IMG/VR virus record: IMGVR_UViG_3300020312_000001
Strand: one strand, 5' to 3'
DNA length: 20,000 nt
Source of the DNA: an uncultured virus (IMG/VR IMGVR_UViG_3300020312_000001)
Lineage: Duplodnaviria > Heunggongvirae > Uroviricota > Caudoviricetes > Crassvirales
Below, piece by piece: positions 2-20,000 of the stretch (position 1 is the first letter of the stretch; every line of letters starts with the position of its first letter). The position numbers were made by a program, and so were the translations under genes. The notes under the pieces are model-generated. The model saw nothing but the letters and a program-made list of their open reading frames with translations, did no database searches and was not told where the DNA came from.

Positions 2-2917
2 CGTTTAGTTAGACAGTTAAATAGTAAGTTAGCGTCTGATAGTAAGTCTATGGATAAATCTGAAGGTATGTCCGTATTTGACTTTGATGAAACATTGATA
101 ATAGATGGTAAAAACGTAGTGGTAGCAACAAACCCTAAAACAAAAGAAACAGAAGTAATAAGCTCTGAAGATTGGCCAACAAGAGGAACAGAATTAATGG
201 AGTTGGGTTGGAGCATGAACTTTGATGATTTTATAAACGTAAGAGGCGGTGTTAAAGGACCATTGTTTAAAAAACTTTTAAATAGAATAAAAAAATATGG
301 ACCTGATAATAATTTTATATTAACAGCTAGACCTCAAGAATCTGCTGTAGCTATTCACGGCTGGTTAAAATCTAAAGGAGTTAACATACCTTTAAACAAT
401 ATAACTGGATTAGGTAATAGTACTGGTGACGCTAAAGCTCAGTGGATATTAAATAAGTATAAAGAAGGTTATAACGATGTTTATTTTGTAGATGATGCAA
501 TGCAGAACGTTGATGCTGTTAAGCACGTTATGGATCAGTTAGACATAAAAGGTAGTTCTGTCCAAGCTAAAGTAGATTTTAATAAAAATGTAGACGCTGA
601 GTTTAATCAAATACTAGCAGATACTAGTAAGATGGATCCTTTAAAAAGAGTTACAGCTCAAGAAGCTGCTATGCTAGGTAAGAAAAAGGGTGGTTCACTT
701 TTAAAGAACTTTTTTATTCCACCATCCGCTGAAGATTTCAAAGGTTTACTTTATAGGTTTTTAGCTAAAGGAAAAAAGGGAGACCAACATATGGAATTTT
801 TTAAGAAAAATTTACTAGACCCTTACTCTAAAGCATATACCAATTGGAACTCATATAAACAAAACATGTCCAACGAATATAGTACTTTGAAGAAGAGTTT
901 TCCTAATGTAGTTAAGTCAATGAAGGATATTGTTCCGGGTACAAACCTAACTAATGACCACGCTATTAGAGCTTATCTATGGAACAAAGGTGGTTTAGAA
1001 GTACCTGGTTTATCTGATGCTCAAAAGCAAGTTTTAGTAGATCATGTTAGTAACAATCCTGAACTCTCTGGTTTTGCTGATAACCTAAGTAAAATAACTA
1101 GATTAGAAGAAGGATATATAAGACCAGATGAAAATTGGACCGTTAAAAATATTGCACGTGACTTAAACGATATAGTTAAAAACGTTGGTAGAAAACAATT
1201 TTTTGAAGAATGGAAAAACAATAAAGATCAAATATTTTCAAAAGAAAATTTAAATAAAATAGAAGCTATACATGGAACAAACTTCAGGCAAGAGTTGGAG
1301 AAAATGTTGTATAGAATGGAGACAGGTAGTAATAGGGTTACGGGTAAAAATAGACACGTTAATCGTTTTATGGACTGGATAAACGGTTCTGTTGGCGCAG
1401 TGATGTTTTTTAATATGAGATCAGCGAGTCTTCAAACTATATCTATGGCTAATTTTATTAACTGGAAAGATAACAATATATTTGCTGCGTCAAAAGCTTT
1501 TGCTAATCAACCACAATTTTGGAAAGACTTTGCTATGATATTCAACTCTCCAATGTTAAAACAAAGAAGAGCTGGTATGCAAATAGATGTTAACGCTAAT
1601 GAATTAATGGAGGCTTTTTCTGAAGGCAAAAGTAAACCAGAGGCTGTTATAAAATGGATGTTAGAAAAAGGATTCTTACCAACTCAAATGGCTGATAGTT
1701 TTGCTATTGCAATGGGTGGTGCTCCATTTTATAGAAATAGACTAGATAAGTATATAAAGGAGGGTAAACACCCCGAGCAAGCAGCTCAAGATGCTTGGAG
1801 TGATTTTCAAGAAATTGCTGAGGAAACACAGCAGTCGTCTAGACCTGATTTAATATCTAATCAACAAGCTGGACCATTAGGTAGATTAATACTAGCTTGG
1901 CAAAATACTCCAATGCAGATGACTAGATTAACTAAGAAAGCTATATCAGACTTAGTTAATGGTAGAGGTGATCCAAAACAACATATATCAAGAATAATGT
2001 ACTATGGTCTTATTCAGAACTTAATATTTGGAACACTACAAACAGGATTAGGATTCTTACTATTTGGTGATGATGAGGAAGATGAGAAAAGAAAGAAGAT
2101 GTCAACTGAAAGAGTTTTAAACGGAGCTTTAGATACTCTACTTAGAGGTACTGGTGTTTATGGAGCAGCTATATCTACAGTTAAAAATACTATAATGGAG
2201 TTTTATGAGCAAAGAAGAAAAGGTTGGGGAGCTGATCACGGTTACACTGTTATAGAAGCTATAAATTTATCACCACCTATTGGTAGTAAACTGCGTAAAG
2301 TTTACAAAGCTATACAAGCTGACAAATGGAATAGAGGGGTTGGTAAGAAATTAGGTTTTAGAGTTGAAAGTCCAGGTGCTGTTATTGCTGCAAATATTAT
2401 AGAAGCATTAACAAATGCACCTGTTGCTAGATTACTTAACAAAGCTAATCACATAGAAGAAGCTTTAACTGGTAACCATGAGATGTGGCAGAGAATGGCT
2501 TTACTAGGTGGATGGGACATGTGGTCTGTTGGAGTTAAAGACGAAGAGGTAGAGCAAGCTAAAGCAGATATAAAGCGAGAAAAGAAAGAACAAAAAGAAC
2601 TTGAAAAAATACAGAAGAAAAAAGAAAAAGAAGAACAAAAGAAAATAGAAGAACAGAAAGAGAAAGAAAGAAAAGAAAAAGAGGGTATAAAAACAGTTCG
2701 GTGTTCTGGTACAAATTCCAGCGGCAGAAGATGTGGTTTAACAACTGAAACAAAAAAGAAAACCTGGAAATGTCCTCACCACGCTGAGTTTAAAGATGGT
2801 AGTGATACAGATGGGGACGGTATAAAAGAATATAGATGTACAGCTGTGAAATCAAACGGTAAGCGCTGTAAGAACAAAACTGAGAATAAGAACAAGAAAT
2901 GTTATGCTCACCAATAA
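2..2917 (+). CDS. Very large phage protein, 5'-truncated by the window. HAD-superfamily domain, long helical region, Lys/Glu coiled coil and two C-terminal C-x9-C-x10-12-C-x2-H repeats; probable virion/ejected polyvalent protein
   Basis: The frame is open from base 2 to the ATG at 50, so the gene starts upstream. HAD motifs: VFDFDETL (I), ILTAR (II), K in GDAKA (III), YFVDD (IV). C-terminal CSGTNSSGRRC...CPHH and CTAVKSNGKRC...CYAH. Confidence 0.75.
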   Translation, partial: RLVRQLNSKLASDSKSMDKSEGMSVFDFDETLIIDGKNVVVATNPKTKETEVISSEDWPTRGTELMELGWSMNFDDFINVRGGVKGPLFKKLLNRIKKYGPDNNFILTARPQESAVAIHGWLKSKGVNIPLNNITGLGNSTGDAKAQWILNKYKEGYNDVYFVDDAMQNVDAVKHVMDQLDIKGSSVQAKVDFNKNVDAEFNQILADTSKMDPLKRVTAQEAAMLGKKKGGSLLKNFFIPPSAEDFKGLLYRFLAKGKKGDQHMEFFKKNLLDPYSKAYTNWNSYKQNMSNEYSTLKKSFPNVVKSMKDIVPGTNLTNDHAIRAYLWNKGGLEVPGLSDAQKQVLVDHVSNNPELSGFADNLSKITRLEEGYIRPDENWTVKNIARDLNDIVKNVGRKQFFEEWKNNKDQIFSKENLNKIEAIHGTNFRQELEKMLYRMETGSNRVTGKNRHVNRFMDWINGSVGAVMFFNMRSASLQTISMANFINWKDNNIFAASKAFANQPQFWKDFAMIFNSPMLKQRRAGMQIDVNANELMEAFSEGKSKPEAVIKWMLEKGFLPTQMADSFAIAMGGAPFYRNRLDKYIKEGKHPEQAAQDAWSDFQEIAEETQQSSRPDLISNQQAGPLGRLILAWQNTPMQMTRLTKKAISDLVNGRGDPKQHISRIMYYGLIQNLIFGTLQTGLGFLLFGDDEEDEKRKKMSTERVLNGALDTLLRGTGVYGAAISTVKNTIMEFYEQRRKGWGADHGYTVIEAINLSPPIGSKLRKVYKAIQADKWNRGVGKKLGFRVESPGAVIAANIIEALTNAPVARLLNKANHIEEALTGNHEMWQRMALLGGWDMWSVGVKDEEVEQAKADIKREKKEQKELEKIQKKKEKEEQKKIEEQKEKERKEKEGIKTVRCSGTNSSGRRCGLTTETKKKTWKCPHHAEFKDGSDTDGDGIKEYRCTAVKSNGKRCKNKTENKNKKCYAHQ

Positions 2918-9655: not shown

Positions 9656-9688
9656 AAAAAAGGGAGCCGAAGCTCCCTTTATTATTTT
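9654..9688. terminator. Bidirectional intrinsic terminator
   Basis: Hairpin AAAGGGAGC-CGAA-GCTCCCTTT (9659-9680) with an A-run on the left and a T-rich run on the right, between convergent operons. Confidence 0.9.
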
Positions 9689-9884: not shown

Positions 9885-11750
9885 TTAAACAACTTCACAT
9901 GATCCACCAGCACAAGCTAACTCGCCTGATAAATCTGTGTTATCTTCAGCTTCAATAACTTTCGTTAAATCTACATTAGATAATACTTTGGACATCTTAT
10001 TGTATTTAGCTTCGTCAATGTCCTCAAACGGAGCCTGAGTATATGTACCACCATCATATGGTAATACAGATAACCCGTTGTAATATTCTCTATTTTCCCA
10101 CATCCAATCTCCTGCTTTCTTCCATTCATTCTCTTTTAAAGATATCGTAGCTGAAACATTATGAGTATTACTACCTCGTCTATGACCAGGTCGTATCCAC
10201 TCTTGTGCAACACGTTTAACTCTTTCAAGAGTATCAAACGGTGATTCAGTTCTAAGTATTGAACCATCAGGTGCTTTTTGTGGTATGGAAATAACAGCAG
10301 TATCGTGAGGTCTGAAGTACTCATCTTCAATCAATTCCTTATGGTTATTTAATAAATACCCATATATAGCCTCATTCTTCCCTACGCGCATTCTACGGAC
10401 ATAATAATCATTATGCCAAGCATGAATACCCGAAGATGTTCCGAGGACCAGAGATGTCGTCCCTGCAGGTTTTACAGTTGTACATCTAGCTGATGAATTA
10501 ATCCCTATTAGTTTCGCTACTCGTGTATTTTCCTTTGTCACGATATTTGCAGCGGCCTTCATATCCATTTGGAGCACAGCGGCACTCCCGATTCCTGTCA
10601 TTGACACACCTATAAGAGCGTCTTTTTCTGTTGTTTCTTTCCATATTTCTCTAAGATAGTGGAAGTCAGTATATCCAGCTTGTAATGTCCCTATAAACGC
10701 TGCGGCTTTAACTCTAGCGTTTAAATCATCTTGATCTTTAACATTAGATACATTAACTTCACAAAGGTTACAGAACTGGAAGGGCCTAAGCGCTATCTCA
10801 CAGCAAGGGTTTGTACCCCAGTCTTTGTCATTGTTAAGATATATACCAGGCTCTCCAGCTCCAGATAGTTCAACTCGTTTCCATAGGTCCATAAAAAACT
10901 CTTTAGTTATTTTATGTCTCATTAAAACAGCTGAGTTATTAGCTCTACCTCTTTGTGGATTAGTTTCCCACCAATTACCAGACTTACAAGATATCATATC
11001 GTCGTCAGTAGCAGTAAACAAACTGATTAAAGCAGCTCGTCTAATACCACCAGCTAATACAGCGTCGGCTATATGACATATAATATCGTGTACTTCTAGT
11101 GATGTTAATGTTGAACCATCCTCCTTTGCTTCTAAAATACCCTCGACCTTTATTAAACATTCTTTTAAAGGCTGTGGACCAGGTGCTTTACCACCTGATG
11201 TCACTAGCCTAGCACCTTTAGGTCTGATGTCAGTATAATCAAATACTATTCTTGAAGCTCTTTTCTCTCCAAGATAAGATCTAATCAATACTTTAACAGC
11301 ATCAGACCAACCCTCAATTGAATCACCTATAACAAACCTTCTAGTTCTATTCCTAAAAGGTTTCATTAAAAACGGTAAACTCTTTATATGGTGCTGTTGA
11401 ACTGAATATCCAACTCCACATCCTGATAACAATAGAAACATTATCTCGTTGAACGCATCTAAGCTATCAACAGGTAGATAAGAACAGTTGTATAATCTAT
11501 TAGGAGATATTTCAATTGGCTTTCCAGCAAATTGTAAACTTCTCATAGATGGTAATATCTGTTTTGTAAACACATAACTATACGCTTTTCTTATTTCAAC
11601 CTCCAACTCCGGGTATTTCTTAATATGCATTGCCATATTTCTATCCACTAATTCTTCCCAAGTTTCTCTACGTTGTAGTTCAGGAATATATTTAGCGTAT
11701 TTCATATGAACAGTGATATCAGATAAAATGTTACTATTAATTTCTTTCAT
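9885..11750 (-). CDS. nrdJ: Class II (adenosylcobalamin-dependent) ribonucleotide reductase, monomeric RTPR-like
   Basis: LYNCSY, TNPCCEI, CNLCEV, TTVKPAGTTS, C-terminal ACAGGSCE; no beta-subunit gene adjacent. Confidence 0.9.
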   Translation of the reverse strand: MKEINSNILSDITVHMKYAKYIPELQRRETWEELVDRNMAMHIKKYPELEVEIRKAYSYVFTKQILPSMRSLQFAGKPIEISPNRLYNCSYLPVDSLDAFNEIMFLLLSGCGVGYSVQQHHIKSLPFLMKPFRNRTRRFVIGDSIEGWSDAVKVLIRSYLGEKRASRIVFDYTDIRPKGARLVTSGGKAPGPQPLKECLIKVEGILEAKEDGSTLTSLEVHDIICHIADAVLAGGIRRAALISLFTATDDDMISCKSGNWWETNPQRGRANNSAVLMRHKITKEFFMDLWKRVELSGAGEPGIYLNNDKDWGTNPCCEIALRPFQFCNLCEVNVSNVKDQDDLNARVKAAAFIGTLQAGYTDFHYLREIWKETTEKDALIGVSMTGIGSAAVLQMDMKAAANIVTKENTRVAKLIGINSSARCTTVKPAGTTSLVLGTSSGIHAWHNDYYVRRMRVGKNEAIYGYLLNNHKELIEDEYFRPHDTAVISIPQKAPDGSILRTESPFDTLERVKRVAQEWIRPGHRRGSNTHNVSATISLKENEWKKAGDWMWENREYYNGLSVLPYDGGTYTQAPFEDIDEAKYNKMSKVLSNVDLTKVIEAEDNTDLSGELACAGGSCEVV

Positions 11751-11893
11751 TATCGTTTCTTTCTTTTAAATATTGTTAAACAAAAATCTACAAGTGGTAG
11801 ATATATTACATGGTTATGTTTATTTCGTTCGGTATACGTTCTCATTCCAAAAAGTACACCAGGATAAAATCCTACGCTAAATTCCCAATTCAT
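11750..11893 (-). CDS. Small hypothetical protein (47 aa, MNWEFSVGFYPGVLFGMRTY...)
   Basis: Translated by hand; fills the gap exactly, with its stop overlapping the nrdJ start. Confidence 0.6.
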   Translation of the reverse strand: MNWEFSVGFYPGVLFGMRTYTERNKHNHVIYLPLVDFCLTIFKRKKR

Positions 11894-11894
11894 A

Positions 11895-12335
11895 TTATTT
11901 ATTTTTAGTTATTAACTCTATTACCTGATCACATTCTTTCTGGTTTTGAGGCTTATATAAAGTCACATAAGGTCTTGAAATATTAATCATTCTCTTAAAC
12001 AGTTTCCATCTCATTGGAAAACTTTCGTTTGCTCGACCTTTACACTCTATTATAAAGTTCTCATTTACAAAATCTGGTGTGTATTTAATTGGTAATACTT
12101 TCTTATCTCCTCTGTTTTTAAATTCTCCTTTTCCATTAGATTGTCTTTCATAACTATCAATTTCAAAATTAAATCCGTCTATTAAGGTGAATGTTTCTCC
12201 TTCGTATTCAGCTTTTATCTTAGCTTTCTTTAAAGCTTGATACATATACCTTTCTAAACTAGAGGCGAAGGTTATGCCGTCAAACACAACCTTCTTAGAC
12301 CTAACAGGCCCTTTCTTTTTACGTCTCTTTCTCAT
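11895..12335 (-). CDS. PD-(D/E)XK nuclease, T7 endonuclease I/DUF1064-like (candidate Holliday junction resolvase)
   Basis: DGITFASSLE, KYTPDF, IIECKG motifs. Confidence 0.75.
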   Translation of the reverse strand: MRKRRKKKGPVRSKKVVFDGITFASSLERYMYQALKKAKIKAEYEGETFTLIDGFNFEIDSYERQSNGKGEFKNRGDKKVLPIKYTPDFVNENFIIECKGRANESFPMRWKLFKRMINISRPYVTLYKPQNQKECDQVIELITKNK

Positions 12336-12618
12336 TTAACATATCTTTAAGTTCTTCTTGTGCAGTTTGTATGTATAATACCGCGTCCATAAGTTCTTCT
12401 TGAATATCAATTAAATACTTCATGAGACCTTTTATCTTCGTTGTTCTCTCTTCATGAAGAGTCGTGCCGTATTTTTCATAACCAGCGTCTGAACGCTCTT
12501 TAAATTTATCAACAACACGTTTTACAACAGGATCTCGAAACTCAGGACTTAAATCGCAATTCAAGCCGTTGATGGCTTCACTAAACCCTTGTGCATCCAT
12601 TATTTCTCTACTACTCAT
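12319..12618 (-). CDS. Small all-alpha protein, possible MazG/dimeric dUTPase-like NTP pyrophosphatase
   Basis: KYGTTL...IQEELMDAVLY, an EExxD acidic helix; adjacent to the MazG gene. Confidence 0.5.
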   Translation of the reverse strand: MSSREIMDAQGFSEAINGLNCDLSPEFRDPVVKRVVDKFKERSDAGYEKYGTTLHEERTTKIKGLMKYLIDIQEELMDAVLYIQTAQEELKDMLNEKET

Positions 12619-12621
12619 ATA

Positions 12622-13434
12622 TTAATCTTTTACAAATGTTCCATTTTTCATTTTACCAGTTCTTTTACTTATAACATCATAAGCTGATTCAACACATTCT
12701 TCAATTGTTAAACCACAAAGTTCTGCTAAGTTAGTTAATACAACAACCATATCACCGATACCATCTTTTATCTCAGCATCATCTTGTTTTAATATAGCTC
12801 TACCAACTTCACCAGCTTCTTCCATTAATTTGATATATTGGGTTTTAGGATCTCCATTAGCATATATACCACGATCTTCAGCCCAATCTCTAATTTTATC
12901 AAAGTAAAAAACCACACCATCATCATGCTCGTAGAAGTCTTCTTCTTTAAATGGAAGTTCATCTCTCTTGTTGTCTAAATACTTGATCATAGCTTTGTTA
13001 TAAACATAACATCTATCATTGTTAAACATGGATGTCTTAGCGTTTTTAACTATCCATTTAGTTAGATCAGTATCTAAATAAACACTACCATGCTCTGTAT
13101 CCCAGCGCATTTCTAGATTATCCATCAACCGACCTTTGAGCTTGTTGAGTGGACACGGAAAAGTAGTAGTCTGTTCCGTTACATTTATCTTCATATTCTT
13201 TAATTTTAAATTAACACTCAGTTCATTATATGGAATAAGATCAACTTTGTAACCATATTCCTTTTGTAATTCTATTTCACGTTTAGATATATAATTTATA
13301 TCGTCTGATGACTCTAGAATCTCATACTCACCCACCTCATAACCTTGTTGACATTCAACTCTATTGTATAGGTCGTTTGTAACACCGATCTTTTTTCCTG
13401 GTATGTGGTATATTACATATTTATTATCTATCAT
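12622..13434 (-). CDS. Multidomain protein: N-terminal GIY-YIG-like region, unknown middle domain, C-terminal MazG-like NTP pyrophosphohydrolase
   Basis: YVIYHIPGKKIGVT..LYNR; C-terminal KLMEEAGEV...EIKDGIGDMVVVL. Confidence 0.75.
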   Translation of the reverse strand: MIDNKYVIYHIPGKKIGVTNDLYNRVECQQGYEVGEYEILESSDDINYISKREIELQKEYGYKVDLIPYNELSVNLKLKNMKINVTEQTTTFPCPLNKLKGRLMDNLEMRWDTEHGSVYLDTDLTKWIVKNAKTSMFNNDRCYVYNKAMIKYLDNKRDELPFKEEDFYEHDDGVVFYFDKIRDWAEDRGIYANGDPKTQYIKLMEEAGEVGRAILKQDDAEIKDGIGDMVVVLTNLAELCGLTIEECVESAYDVISKRTGKMKNGTFVKD

Positions 13435-14084
13435 AGCTTTTCAATTATATTATCGTAAAGATGTAAGTTGTGTGCAAAGTGGTAATAACTACCTATTAGT
13501 AAACCTGTCTCTGTAGCAACTAATTCCTGTAACTTAGAGAAACAGTATTGATCGTTGCAGAAACCGTACCATAAATCATTAGAACGCATTACAACACACA
13601 TGTCAAGATGTTGAGCTTGAATCGTAAACTGAACAGCATAAGTACATGGAGTGTCATTTGTATAGTGCCCGTAGTTTATTTCCTTAGCATCATATATACT
13701 GATAGCAGCTTGTCTAGTTCTAGGATTTGTTTTAAGCATTGCTATAACATTATCTAGTTGGTTGTCTCTTTTCCATTGCCAACCATAATTAGAATTAACA
13801 TTACCATCTTTGTCAGCCATACGTTTCCATATCTCAGGTATTTTACCATATAATTCACCCAGCTTATTAATGTTTCTATCACCAGATAAATACCATTGCC
13901 ATTCAGCTTCAGCATAATCCCATTTCCAATTACGATCTTCATCATCAATCAAGTTGTCCATTGGGTCATTTATATAAAAACCAACATTAAACAAAGCTTG
14001 AGTGTCATCAAATTCAACACCATAATCTTTTATTAATCTTTTGTAATGCTTAAAAGCTTGATTTGCATTTCTAAATTTAATCAT
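13431..14084 (-). CDS. Thymidylate-synthase-fold enzyme, dCMP hydroxymethylase-like
   Basis: NSNYG, TRQA, DTPCT (catalytic Cys), MRSNDLWYGFCND, YYHFAHNLHLY. Start placed at ATG 14084 (MIKFRN). Confidence 0.8.
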   Translation of the reverse strand: MIKFRNANQAFKHYKRLIKDYGVEFDDTQALFNVGFYINDPMDNLIDDEDRNWKWDYAEAEWQWYLSGDRNINKLGELYGKIPEIWKRMADKDGNVNSNYGWQWKRDNQLDNVIAMLKTNPRTRQAAISIYDAKEINYGHYTNDTPCTYAVQFTIQAQHLDMCVVMRSNDLWYGFCNDQYCFSKLQELVATETGLLIGSYYHFAHNLHLYDNIIEKL

Positions 14085-14343
14085 CTTTTTTATATTTATT
14101 ATAATAGTAATCACAGTACTCATACACTTTGTGCATGATGCTTTCTTTTTTATATCTATTGGGATCAGTGTTTGTTTTACCGTTCATTGTTATTTCCACC
14201 GTCCAATTACCATAGTCTTGTCCCCAAAGAGGAATCGGTCCTATTTTTATACCATTACTAAAGCACCAGTTGTATGATTTTAAATCATCATCCACTCTGC
14301 AGTGTTTAGGGTATTTTCCGTGTTCCTCTTTTAACTTTCCCAT
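14077..14343 (-). CDS. Hypothetical protein
   Basis: 88-aa ORF overlapping both neighbours in the operon. Confidence 0.6.
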   Translation of the reverse strand: MGKLKEEHGKYPKHCRVDDDLKSYNWCFSNGIKIGPIPLWGQDYGNWTVEITMNGKTNTDPNRYKKESIMHKVYEYCDYYYNKYKKDD

Positions 14344-16052
14344 GGTAATGCTCCAACATCAGCTGTGTCAGTCACTAACGGTACGTAACTACCTGATTTT
14401 GGTTCCCAATTAAAATGAGCTTCAGCTTGATTCTCACCTAAGTTTTGAAACTTAACTTTTAAGACTTTGACCTTAACTGTTTTAGCTTCGTAATCTCTAT
14501 GCACTAAAAGTCCGTGATAACTAGCATCATACCATTCGCCTCCACCCTTAATACTATACATTGTGGGTTCTTCAATTTTACCCTCTTTATCTCTGTACAT
14601 TTTAGTAGGGTGAGCAACAACCATAACCAATACATCATATTTTTTAGCAAACGTTTCGATTTTAGTTAAATACTCCATAGTGTAACGATTAACATCTTCA
14701 GTCTTACAATCAACATCTCTAATCTTGTTAAAGGGATCAATGACTAAACATTTAATACCTTTACGTTTCACAAGCTCAGCACCTTTGCGTAGTACATCTT
14801 CTAAAGTATATCTATCCATATCAATAAAGAAATAATTATCATTAATATGTTCGGTAACTTGTTTCCATTTGTCACTACCAACATCATCTTTAGTTGGCAT
14901 TCCCTCCCATGTTTTACGTATCAACTTATGAGCATGTAGAAAATTAGGTTTGTTTTCTGGAGACGCAAACGCTGTCTTCCACCCATAATTTCTATTATAA
15001 CCTATACACATTTGGTCTACAAAGTCTGACTTACCAGATGATGGTATACCTGTTACAGTTATAAACTGCGAGGTATATGTAGAGAATATTCTATCAAAAT
15101 TCTCTAAACCAACCTGATAACCAGGTTTAAAACCGTTGTGTACGAAGTCGAGTAAATCAGCCTCAATATCTTTAAGGGTTGAAACACCTTCTAATGGAAC
15201 TTGAGTTGCAGAACTTATAACCTTTCTAAGTTCTTCTGCTCCGTGTTCTACTAGAAAATCATTAGGGTCTTTATTACCGTTGAAATCTACCAAATAACAG
15301 ACTTCAGCACCAAGACGTCTAATTAACTCATATCTTAAAGCTTGACCAGCCTCATCAGCATCGACCGCTAATATAACCTTATTCTTATCTTCAAAATAAT
15401 CAATACAATTATCTAGATAATCTAGATTATTACTGTTTAACGTGGCACCGTTAGGAACTGATATCACATTCTTGATTCCAGCTTCGTGTAATGCTAAAGC
15501 ATCCATTTCACCTTCAGTGATAACGCACCAGTCATATCCTACAATACTATTTATGTTGTAGAATATCTTTTCAGCACCTTTATATAGTTTAAAATTCTTT
15601 CTTCCATCTCTATACTTTATATTAATAAGCTCATCACCCATAATATAATTAAATTGTATAGTATTTTCTTTCCCTCCTGTTTGAGGCATAAACTCTTCGC
15701 CTGTTGTAACACTTAAGTCATCTAACGTTTGTTGAGATATACCTCTAGTTTTAAACCACTCAACAGCCTTGTCTTTAACTGGCTCGAATACTTCAACTGG
15801 TATTGGTTTTACATATTCTCTAGTCGCGTTACCTTTACGTTGGTATGTATGTAACTGAAAGCTAGTGTCACAGTTATGACAAGTGCCGAGACCACGTTCC
15901 CAATCATAAGAAGCACATTGCAGCTTCTGATTCTTAGGTTGTCTAGTGTGAGAGCACAAAGGGCAAATGCCTTGAGTGCTCCCAGGTTTTAGACTGTATT
16001 GATTGAATTGGTCAATCAAGAATCCATTGATCTCTGTGTTTTCTATATTCAT
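14331..16052 (-). CDS. Bifunctional primase-helicase (T7 gp4/Twinkle-like)
   Basis: Zn ribbon CPLC...CHNC; TOPRIM ITEGEMD and DADEAG; Walker A GIPSSGKS; LVIDP; VAHPTK. Confidence 0.92.
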   Translation of the reverse strand: MNIENTEINGFLIDQFNQYSLKPGSTQGICPLCSHTRQPKNQKLQCASYDWERGLGTCHNCDTSFQLHTYQRKGNATREYVKPIPVEVFEPVKDKAVEWFKTRGISQQTLDDLSVTTGEEFMPQTGGKENTIQFNYIMGDELINIKYRDGRKNFKLYKGAEKIFYNINSIVGYDWCVITEGEMDALALHEAGIKNVISVPNGATLNSNNLDYLDNCIDYFEDKNKVILAVDADEAGQALRYELIRRLGAEVCYLVDFNGNKDPNDFLVEHGAEELRKVISSATQVPLEGVSTLKDIEADLLDFVHNGFKPGYQVGLENFDRIFSTYTSQFITVTGIPSSGKSDFVDQMCIGYNRNYGWKTAFASPENKPNFLHAHKLIRKTWEGMPTKDDVGSDKWKQVTEHINDNYFFIDMDRYTLEDVLRKGAELVKRKGIKCLVIDPFNKIRDVDCKTEDVNRYTMEYLTKIETFAKKYDVLVMVVAHPTKMYRDKEGKIEEPTMYSIKGGGEWYDASYHGLLVHRDYEAKTVKVKVLKVKFQNLGENQAEAHFNWEPKSGSYVPLVTDTADVGALPWES

Positions 16053-19444: not shown

Positions 19445-19693
19445 CTATTCATACTCATAATATTTTGTTCTAAAAAACTCTCTTATTCCTCTACCTTCTC
19501 TAGTATGAAATCCATAACTATGTGTGAAATGTCCTTTTATTGGTACATCACCTAACATAAACTTTATAACTTCCATTGGTTCCATGTCGGAGAATGAATT
19601 AGCCGTTTTTATAGCAGCATAAGACAACGCATCGACACTATGTCTAAGTTCCCAATCGTTATCATCTACATACTTTAATATCTCTTTATTCAT
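19445..19693 (-). CDS. Hypothetical protein
   Basis: 82-aa ORF overlapping the ligase stop. Confidence 0.6.
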   Translation of the reverse strand: MNKEILKYVDDNDWELRHSVDALSYAAIKTANSFSDMEPMEVIKFMLGDVPIKGHFTHSYGFHTREGRGIREFFRTKYYEYE

Positions 19694-20000
19694 AGTTTCT
19701 TATACATTTAAATAGTGGGTGACGGTACGATCCCGCCTTAGTTCTCTCAAAATATGTAAAGGTAGCACGCTGACCCATGTATTCATGGATATTAGCAAGC
19801 ATAATAGCAAGATCTTTATAATTATGGCCTTTTCCTGGTGGACAACCGAATTGATTTCCATCATCATCTTGCATTATAAACTTACCTAGCGTGCCGGTTC
19901 TTTTGCCTTTACCCTCTTCATAACCAACAATGTCAGCTTCAGCATCGCTGAAATCTTTGAATTTTCTAAGACTATGCGACCTCTTACATTGGTAAGGTGT
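19686..20000 (-). CDS. ATP-dependent DNA ligase, C-terminal part (5'-truncated by the window)
   Basis: The frame is open to base 20000: YQCKRSHSLRKFKDFSDAEADIVGYEEGKGKRTGTLG (motif V and OB domain) and SYRHPLFKCIR (motif VI-like). Confidence 0.85.
   Translation of the reverse strand, partial: TPYQCKRSHSLRKFKDFSDAEADIVGYEEGKGKRTGTLGKFIMQDDDGNQFGCPPGKGHNYKDLAIMLANIHEYMGQRATFTYFERTKAGSYRHPLFKCIRNYE

Follow-up and report, generated by a model that had tools for sequence, protein, structure and literature searches.

A predicted T4-type dCMP hydroxymethylase coupled to a MazG-domain fusion protein in an uncultured marine phage group

Phage T4 offers the closest described counterpart to the locus considered here. 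Its gp42 (PDB 1b49, 1b5e, 6a9b), a deoxycytidine monophosphate (dCMP) hydroxymethylase with the thymidylate synthase (TS) fold, is paired with gp56, an all-alpha nucleoside triphosphate (NTP) pyrophosphatase that acts as a dCTPase/dUTPase and feeds the hydroxymethylase by splitting deoxycytidine triphosphate (dCTP) into dCMP and pyrophosphate; gp1 kinase, glucosyltransferases and a polymerase of its own complete the T4 equipment. A pairing of the same kind lies on a 20,000-nt stretch of the uncultured virus IMGVR_UViG_3300020312_000001 (IMG/VR; Crassvirales), referred to throughout as the window, in which the gene for a 217-aa TS homologue precedes those for a 270-aa protein with a C-terminal MazG domain and for a 99-aa protein, p99. 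The TS homologue is predicted, on its active-site residues, to be a T4-type dCMP hydroxymethylase, that is, a 5-hydroxymethyl-dCMP (hm-dCMP) synthase.

The residues that distinguish such enzymes have been described in some detail. In T4 gp42, Asp179 selects cytosine, the water used to hydrate the methylene intermediate is held by Asp145, Ser94 and Tyr96 jointly, and the product is lost or nearly so in the D145N, S94N, Y96F, C148S and D179N mutants; an Asp three residues before the catalytic Cys plus a Ser-x-Tyr pair has been proposed as a signature of hydroxymethylation, and Trp83 of E. coli ThyA screens the site from solvent (PMC6400193). In E. coli numbering, N177D marks the use of dCMP, L143D/E a product other than methyl, and D169N the flavin-dependent 5-hydroxy-dCMP synthases of phages RB69 and DLP3 (PMC13326640). 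At the level of environmental DNA, the MetaGPA study showed that virome contigs with modified cytosine are enriched in TS homologues bearing Asp177, where they co-occur with the MazG-superfamily domain PRA-PH (PMC8670742). Both the kind of system, as in T4, and the co-occurrence of Asp177 TS homologues with the MazG superfamily are already published. New are the phage group, the small size of the enzyme, the way in which fusions and p99 are arranged, and the fact that genes for a kinase, a transferase and a polymerase are apparently lacking. MetaGPA reports associations between Pfam domains, and in the passages of it consulted here the marine phage group, the fusion architecture and p99 do not appear; a literature search of limited scope turned up no account of this phage group.

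By family, the TS homologue is a member of Thymidylat_synt (PF00303; E 3.4e-27, 95.7 bits against a cut-off of 24.3). Its top sequence matches in the PDB are T4 dCMP hydroxymethylase (1b49, 6e-18) and the CMP hydroxymethylase MilA (1.5e-17), with ThyAs following from 5e-15, and against the NCBIfam ThyA equivalogs it scores at most 79.5 bits where the cut-offs are 108-576 (327 for the best of them). The translation contains DTPCTYAVQF and MRSNDLWYGFCND, and in the alignment with 1b49 RSNDLWYGFCND pairs with T4 RSNDVVFGFRND, including GFCND opposite T4 GFRND. The first two of these motifs and the MazG-domain gene that follows had been pointed out in the preliminary description, and the open reading frames (ORFs), PF00303 and PF03819 agree with it.

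Residue by residue, the comparison rests on an alignment (A1) of the window protein with E. coli ThyA, T4 gp42, RB69 gp48, SPO1 gp29, a Kuttervirus TS homologue and three other phage homologues. In E. coli numbering, E58, Y94, C146, R166, S167, D169, H207 and Y209 are kept, while L143 is changed to Asp, H147 to Thr, W83 to Met and N177 to Asp. The catalytic Cys and Glu (T4 C148 and E60) are given by DTPC and AEWQW, which pair with T4 SDFMC and RELEW; the acidic residue three before the Cys (NDTPC) corresponds to T4 D145; and a Ser stands two residues before Y94 in NSNYG, so that the T4 Ser94-x-Tyr96 motif is present in identical form. All seven published T4 recognition residues are found (Glu60, Ser94-x-Tyr96, Asp145, Cys148, Asp171 and Asp179 in T4 numbering), and all 73 aligned sequences of the family keep the catalytic Cys. 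Furthermore, Asp169 is retained within RSND, which speaks against a 5-hydroxy-dCMP synthase, as the Asp at the Leu143 position does against a methyl product. Only 8 residues follow the equivalents of H207 and Y209, where E. coli ThyA is about 55 residues longer.

The Asp at position 177 and the low equivalog scores bear out the earlier statement that this is not an ordinary thyA. Where that statement left the product as either 5-hydroxymethyl- or 5-methyl-dCMP, the Asp at Leu143 and the Ser-x-Tyr pair narrow the predicted product to the hydroxymethyl form (PMC6400193, PMC13326640), with 5-hydroxy-dCMP as a third possibility that the retained Asp169 disfavours.

Conservation of these positions is nearly complete. 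The pattern D143/T147/N168/D169/D177 occurs, by script count, in 82/82 loci, namely 80 viral contigs (the best of 512 related IMG/VR stretches), a Bacteroides phage and the window, as well as in 119 of 120 database homologues, the remaining one differing at position 168 alone. In a maximum-likelihood tree of 24 sequences the family forms a clade of its own together with the Bacteroides phage protein (92/92), and the two enzymes of the type acting on deoxyuridine monophosphate (dUMP), SPO1 gp29 and its Kuttervirus counterpart, group apart from it in another clade (98/98); these two carry Asn at the uracil-selecting position and a one-residue insertion, where the window protein has Asp. The closest isolate protein is the product of gene 00032 of Bacteroides phage BF486P2 (45% identity), apparently annotated automatically as a deoxycytidylate 5-hydroxymethyltransferase, which shares the clade and the signature but has no MazG homologue within the surrounding 24.6 kb. 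That phage encodes two Asp177 TS paralogues with a dUTPase between them (L082, 9156-9917 and 11989-12669). Two further isolate genes carry Asp at both 177 and 143 and are for that reason probably of the dCMP type: one in Agathobaculum phage AB434P2 (L085:2860-3522), annotated as a deoxyuridylate hydroxymethyltransferase, and one in Enterococcus phage VFW (L086:2992-3837), annotated as a thymidylate synthase and located beside a dUTPase and a beta-glucosyltransferase-like gene.

As for the partner of the TS homologue, its C-terminal domain is a MazG-type all-alpha NTP pyrophosphatase. Pfam MazG (PF03819) matches residues 202-258 with 30.3 bits against a cut-off of 22, accompanied by a weak PRA-PH match; PHROG MazG-like pyrophosphatases match at 1e-30 to 1e-34, the small MazG type being phrog_715; and a profile of the 270-aa family matches MazG 1vmg at 8e-7 in a PDB profile search. 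Matches to known families are confined to the last ~100 residues. In an AlphaFold model built with 64 homologues (mean pLDDT 80.8) the chain falls into three separate domains, of which the first (residues 1-72) is beta-beta-alpha-beta-alpha, the second (80-157) alpha/beta and the third (177-270) helical. Searches with the whole model match the last domain only. VIA gave Z 9.9 to MazG 1vmg (root-mean-square deviation 2.1, 81 aligned), 9.6 to 2yxh and 8.7 to S-2L MazZ 7ody, and Foldseek returned the dCTPases DCTPP1 7mu5 and 6sqw-z, along with the dCTPase of mouse and further MazG proteins, none of them better than E 3e-3; the same PDB dCTPase entries are listed for T4-like dCTPases in Table 1 of PMC13326640. 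Within the domain, E205, E206, E209, D224 and D228 are invariant, a set that would fit a metal-binding NTP pyrophosphatase. The Pfam matches of T4 gp56 are likewise all-alpha (dUTPase_2 and a weak PRA-PH match), but the two proteins share no detectable sequence relation and the window protein carries two extra N-terminal domains.

Of these two domains, the first has no Pfam match, and its invariant residues are Y9, H10, G13, K15, G17, R25 and E53; we take its beta-beta-alpha-beta-alpha topology to fit the GIY-YIG / T5orf172 fold. For residues 1-165 the nearest ESM Atlas clusters partly carry PF10544 (T5orf172) and PF13455 (MUG113), with scores of 0.94-0.97, and the T5orf172/GIY-YIG-like label for residues 1-72 is offered as a lead only. 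The middle domain (invariants T86, T89, T91, F92, N131, S135, R141 and Y145) has no family match in Pfam, and it was barely probed by the fold searches, whose match lists were filled by the MazG domain.

The coupling of the two genes is conservative. On the same strand, a MazG gene lies 3' of the TS gene in 78 of the 80 viral loci, and in 69 of these 78 it abuts or overlaps it (-61 to +2 nt); in the other nine the distance is 76-724 nt, with a dCMP deaminase gene between in L019-L021. The two loci without MazG are a contig ending 41 nt past TS (L032) and one with another neighbour (L012). Most of the MazG genes (66) encode fusions of 253-298 aa, ten encode stand-alone proteins of 100-104 aa and two are cut by the contig end. 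The T4-like pairing of a TS homologue with a pyrophosphatase, noted already in the preliminary description, is thus a stable feature, it agrees with the Asp177 TS / PRA-PH association of MetaGPA, which likewise came from modified environmental virome DNA (PMC8670742), and it makes a dCTPase role for the MazG domain plausible, as inferred from synteny and from the fold likeness to DCTPP1.

Four loci outside the window lineage, three with stand-alone MazG (L020, L058, L078) and one with the fusion (L062), belong to genomes with a Terminase_3-type terminase, so that the pair travels between phage backbones. Their surroundings differ in detail. In the sister-lineage loci L058 (5756-6649) and L078 (6323-7228) the TS gene (Asp177) is directly preceded by a gene for a pyridoxal phosphate (PLP)-dependent enzyme (PF00291), the two overlapping in L058, and has stand-alone MazG 3' of it. 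In L020 (10001-11381) the order is Asp177 TS, dCMP/cytidine deaminase, MazG. A DUF6378 gene lies 5' of TS in all four (L058:3683-3949, L078:4112-4420, L020:9480-9764, L062:1367-1687).

A third component of the cassette is p99, present in 63 of the 80 viral loci and always after the MazG fusion gene, with homologues in 2603 representative clusters when matches to E 1e-3 are counted. It had been described beforehand as a second MazG-like pyrophosphatase with an all-alpha EExxD character. The latter part fits, as p99 contains QEELMD and its model is all-helical, albeit at moderate confidence (mean pLDDT 68.8), with D71, Q73, E74, E75 and D78 invariant (DxQEExxD). The MazG assignment holds for the 270-aa protein and is not supported for p99, which has no Pfam, NCBIfam or named PHROG match and an hhalign probability of 1.4% against the MazG fusion family; a PDB profile search came back empty, Foldseek gave one row (E 7.5) and VIA a best Z of 5.0 to generic helical chains, neither containing a MazG chain, and ESM Atlas yielded unnamed viral clusters only. 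A relation to DUF6378, suggested by motif likeness (ERS..YG and ExL(L/M)DAxxY, alignment A4), is unsupported by hhalign (1.7%) and stays a lead only.

Natural fusions are more informative. In P0355 a p99-like segment (E 9e-13) is combined with counterparts of both N-terminal domains found in the 270-aa protein (E 4e-15), and in P0276 residues 1-68 of p99 share a chain with a MazG domain, indicating that p99 belongs to the cassette, of which it is a conserved accessory. These two were the only informative cases in Pfam scans of 27 representative p99 homologues (17 of at least 128 aa), which otherwise gave mostly unrelated matches or none. When p99 was modelled as the partner of the TS homologue and the 270-aa protein, the complex prediction scored 0.00, which is evidence neither way. 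The T5orf172/GIY-YIG-like domain, the alpha/beta domain and p99, whose order in the fusions varies from phage to phage (P0355, P0276), might together make up a new accessory unit acting either as a nuclease on unmodified cytosine DNA (compare the GIY-YIG endonuclease II of T4) or in the step from hm-dCMP to the diphosphate, an idea that we regard as speculative and rather unlikely. If true, such a unit would let a phage lacking kinase and polymerase genes replace cytosine by means of host replication enzymes only.

From the observed order of the genes, the identity of their domains, the residues of the active site and the conservation of these features, we consider it probable, with room for doubt, that a T4-type dCMP hydroxymethylase, a MazG dCTPase and host enzymes jointly give rise to unglycosylated 5-hydroxymethylcytosine (5hmC) DNA that resists restriction. 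In such a pathway, Cys147 (E. coli C146) would attack C6 of dCMP, Asp178 (E. coli N177, T4 D179) would select and protonate cytosine, and the methylene of methylenetetrahydrofolate would be transferred to C5; Asp144 (T4 D145) and Ser98-x-Tyr100 (T4 S94 and Y96) would then position a water so that the exocyclic methylene is hydrated, with no hydride transfer, and the product would be hm-dCMP. The coupled MazG domain would most likely hydrolyse dCTP to dCMP and pyrophosphate, as gp56 does in T4, depleting the competing canonical nucleotide and at the same time feeding the hydroxymethylase. Host enzymes are presumed to phosphorylate and incorporate hm-dCMP, since no phage kinase, DNA polymerase or glycosyltransferase was recognised. 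Cytosine would in this way probably be replaced in the phage DNA, and the resulting 5hmC DNA would withstand cytosine-dependent restriction, allowing escape from the host's systems. The replicative polymerase of E. coli incorporates 5-hydroxymethyl-dCTP in vivo (bioRxiv 10.1101/2024.12.05.627091), so a phage without a polymerase could in principle use the pathway.

Several observations weigh against this proposal. Within the enzyme, neither Arg21 nor Arg127 of E. coli ThyA is kept in A1; the alignment with T4 gp42 (246 aa) extends over residues 69-197 only, and Lys28 and Arg124 of gp42 are unmatched. The phylogeny that had been suggested as a check sets the dUMP types apart but yields no resolved sister grouping of the family and T4 gp42, its deep forks being unresolved and the branches of T4, RB69 and E. 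coli long; because of this, the dCMP-hydroxymethylase call is drawn from the active site and not from phylogeny. As regards the partner, hhalign gives a probability of 1.4% between the MazG fusion family and T4 gp56, 1538 records of isolated phages contain this MazG subtype, and its closest isolate copy (Riemerella phage RAP44, 54% identity) has no adjacent TS gene, so that membership of this subfamily says nothing about dCTP specificity.

The main gap, however, concerns the kinase. No kinase or glycosyltransferase family is found among the scanned ORFs of the window (Pfam, PHROGs), as had been remarked before, and the suggested search for a deoxynucleoside monophosphate (dNMP) kinase or transferases elsewhere in the genome, made on relatives, found none. 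Genome content was judged from five relatives (G001-G005; 59-96 kb, 92-100% complete): in six-frame searches, thymidylate kinase (PF02223), a T4 gp1-like kinase, DNA polymerases A and B, dCMP deaminase, ThyX and glycosyltransferase families 2 and 1 (PF00535, PF00534) were each found in 0/5, and one PF00303 gene was found in each. Walker A ORFs are limited to the primase-helicase and one giant protein. T4 needs a dNMP kinase to take hm-dCMP to the triphosphate, and neither its gp1, its glucosyltransferases nor its own polymerase is matched in these genomes.

Among the alternatives, hm-dCMP may be the first step only, with p99, the T5orf172-like and middle domains or other ORFs leading on to a hypermodified base. 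Three conserved cassette domains are without an assigned function, most ORFs of the relative G002 have no family match, carbamoyl, glycosyl and other 5hmC derivatives are known (including PMC8670742), and the PLP-dependent gene that overlaps the TS start in the sister lineages L058 and L078 may itself provide a hypermodification route from 5hmC. The window lineage has no PLP enzyme, though, the two glycosyltransferase families are missing from all five relatives, and a Pfam scan of G002 found no carbamoyltransferase, kinase or radical-SAM family, so we regard this extension as improbable.

Slightly less credible still is a dCMP methyltransferase of the Xp12 type, which would yield 5-methyl-dCMP and 5-methylcytosine (5mC) DNA, with MazG again serving as a dCTPase. 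The Asp at N177 taken alone is compatible with it: ThyA N177D mutants become dCMP methylases (cited in PMC8670742), Asp177 TS homologues from viromes make 5-methyldeoxycytidine, and the order TS, deaminase, MazG seen in the related lineage L020 has been linked to phages with 5mC (bioRxiv 10.1101/2024.12.05.627091). Against a methyl product stand the hydroxymethylase markers, namely the Asp at L143 and the water-holding Ser-x-Tyr pair, as well as the replacement of the solvent-shielding Trp83 by Met and the absence of the C-terminal tail of ThyA. In ThyA, this tail closes the site for hydride transfer.

A pair serving nucleotide supply, in which a thymidylate synthase or dUMP hydroxymethylase acts on dUMP beside a house-cleaning or dUTP-hydrolysing MazG, would leave the DNA unmodified or modified at T. 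The cassette does lie among ordinary replication and ribonucleotide reductase genes, its MazG subtype is frequent in phages without a nearby TS gene, and the five relatives encode no second TS or ThyX; nevertheless, the Asp at 177 in all 82 loci, the separate clade of the proven dUMP hydroxymethylase SPO1 gp29 and its Asn-bearing Kuttervirus homologue, and ThyA equivalog scores far under their cut-offs make it very unlikely. Least credible of all is a flavin- and O2-dependent 5-hydroxy-dCMP synthase, since the N177D and acidic L143 positions shared with RB69 gp48 and DLP3 gp80 come, in those enzymes, with Asn at D169 (PMC13326640), where Asp is invariant in 82/82 loci here, and neither the glycosyltransferase families nor an arabinosyltransferase was found.

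The cassette, which is proposed to modify cytosine before replication, sits within a string of minus-strand genes for replication and nucleotide metabolism (Table 1), transcribed in the order ligase fragment, sigma-factor-like, Erf, PDDEXK exonuclease, primase-helicase, 88-aa protein, TS homologue, 270-aa protein, p99, DUF1064 protein and class II ribonucleotide reductase; the last, 3' in the same string, provides a context of deoxynucleotide supply. The likely TS start is 14084, which gives the 217 aa of the identical database protein P0001, and the TS stop codon overlaps the start of the 270-aa gene by 4 nt. Neighbouring genes are kept as well, the 88-aa homologue adjoining TS in 64 of the 80 viral loci and the DUF1064 protein holding its place in 62. 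Megablast of 11800-14400 against isolated phages gave no match.

Table 1. Positions of the cassette and neighbouring genes in the window
Feature	Position	Strand	Basis or remark
TS homologue, 217 aa, predicted dCMP hydroxymethylase	13431..14084	(-)	longest ORF to 14123
270-aa three-domain protein	12622..13434	(-)	ORF; model; TS-adjacent homologues
Residues 1-72 of 270-aa protein, T5orf172/GIY-YIG-like (lead only)	13219..13434	(-)	model topology, ESM Atlas
Residues 80-157 of 270-aa protein, alpha/beta middle domain	12964..13197	(-)	model
Residues ~170-270 of 270-aa protein, MazG-type all-alpha NTP pyrophosphatase domain, proposed dCTPase	12625..12927	(-)	Pfam, PHROG, folds
p99, 99-aa helical protein, QEELMD / DxQEExxD	12319..12618	(-)	ORF, model, synteny
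88-aa protein 5' of TS gene, overlaps both flanking genes	14077..14343	(-)	phrog_5945, function-unknown PHROG
Class II (B12-type) ribonucleotide reductase	9885..11750	(-)	PF21995, PF02867; phrog_367 E 8e-133
DUF1064 / Holliday-junction-resolvase-like protein	11895-12335	(-)	overlaps p99 end by 17 nt
Primase-helicase	14331-16052	(-)	replication gene string
DNA ligase fragment	19686-20000	(-)	replication gene string

Beyond this string, a GC-rich hairpin of 9 bp, flanked on each strand by T runs (9659-9680), follows the reductase gene where the reductase (-) and thioredoxin (+) units converge and resembles a bidirectional terminator, and positions 2-2917 (+) encode the C-terminal 971 aa of one giant ORF.

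The relative G002 (loci L093-L096) gives a fuller picture of the genome. It comprises 71,144 bp, is rated 100% complete and carries identical sequence at both ends, and Pfam and PHROGs identify portal, terminase, virion proteins, two giant proteins, GroEL, GroES, thioredoxin, ribonucleotide reductase, ligase, sigma factor, Erf, exonuclease, primase-helicase, pyrimidine-dimer glycosylase and nuclease. The giant ORFs (L093:13540-19908 and L094:7652-15778) encode >2100 and 2708 aa with almost no family matches, apart from a weak match of one of them to the C-terminal domain of the crAss muzzle protein. A histone-like Hc1 protein is encoded in near-complete relatives.

The terminase is nearest to those of Flavobacterium, Cellulophaga, Tenacibaculum and Maribacter phages, and the window stretch or its relatives are present in marine and seawater metagenomes; the phage is marine, its nearest isolates infect marine Flavobacteriia, and its own hosts are likely to be Flavobacteriia as well. 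Contigs from three marine RNA libraries cover parts of the window, which is no proof of transcription because these are assembled contigs, RNA libraries may contain DNA and the sample behind one run is also that of the likely source; nor does it bear on modification.

If the proposed pathway is correct, a very abundant group of uncultured marine phages, represented by 512 related IMG/VR stretches and thousands of metagenomic homologues, would carry hydroxymethylcytosine DNA made by a minimal two-enzyme pathway. This would bear on restriction and CRISPR defence in ocean bacteria, on the recovery of phages by library methods sensitive to modified bases, and on how much host machinery base replacement needs. 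Moreover, the 217-aa enzyme is a compact candidate hm-dCMP synthase, and the conserved accessory domains are candidates for new DNA-modification functions.

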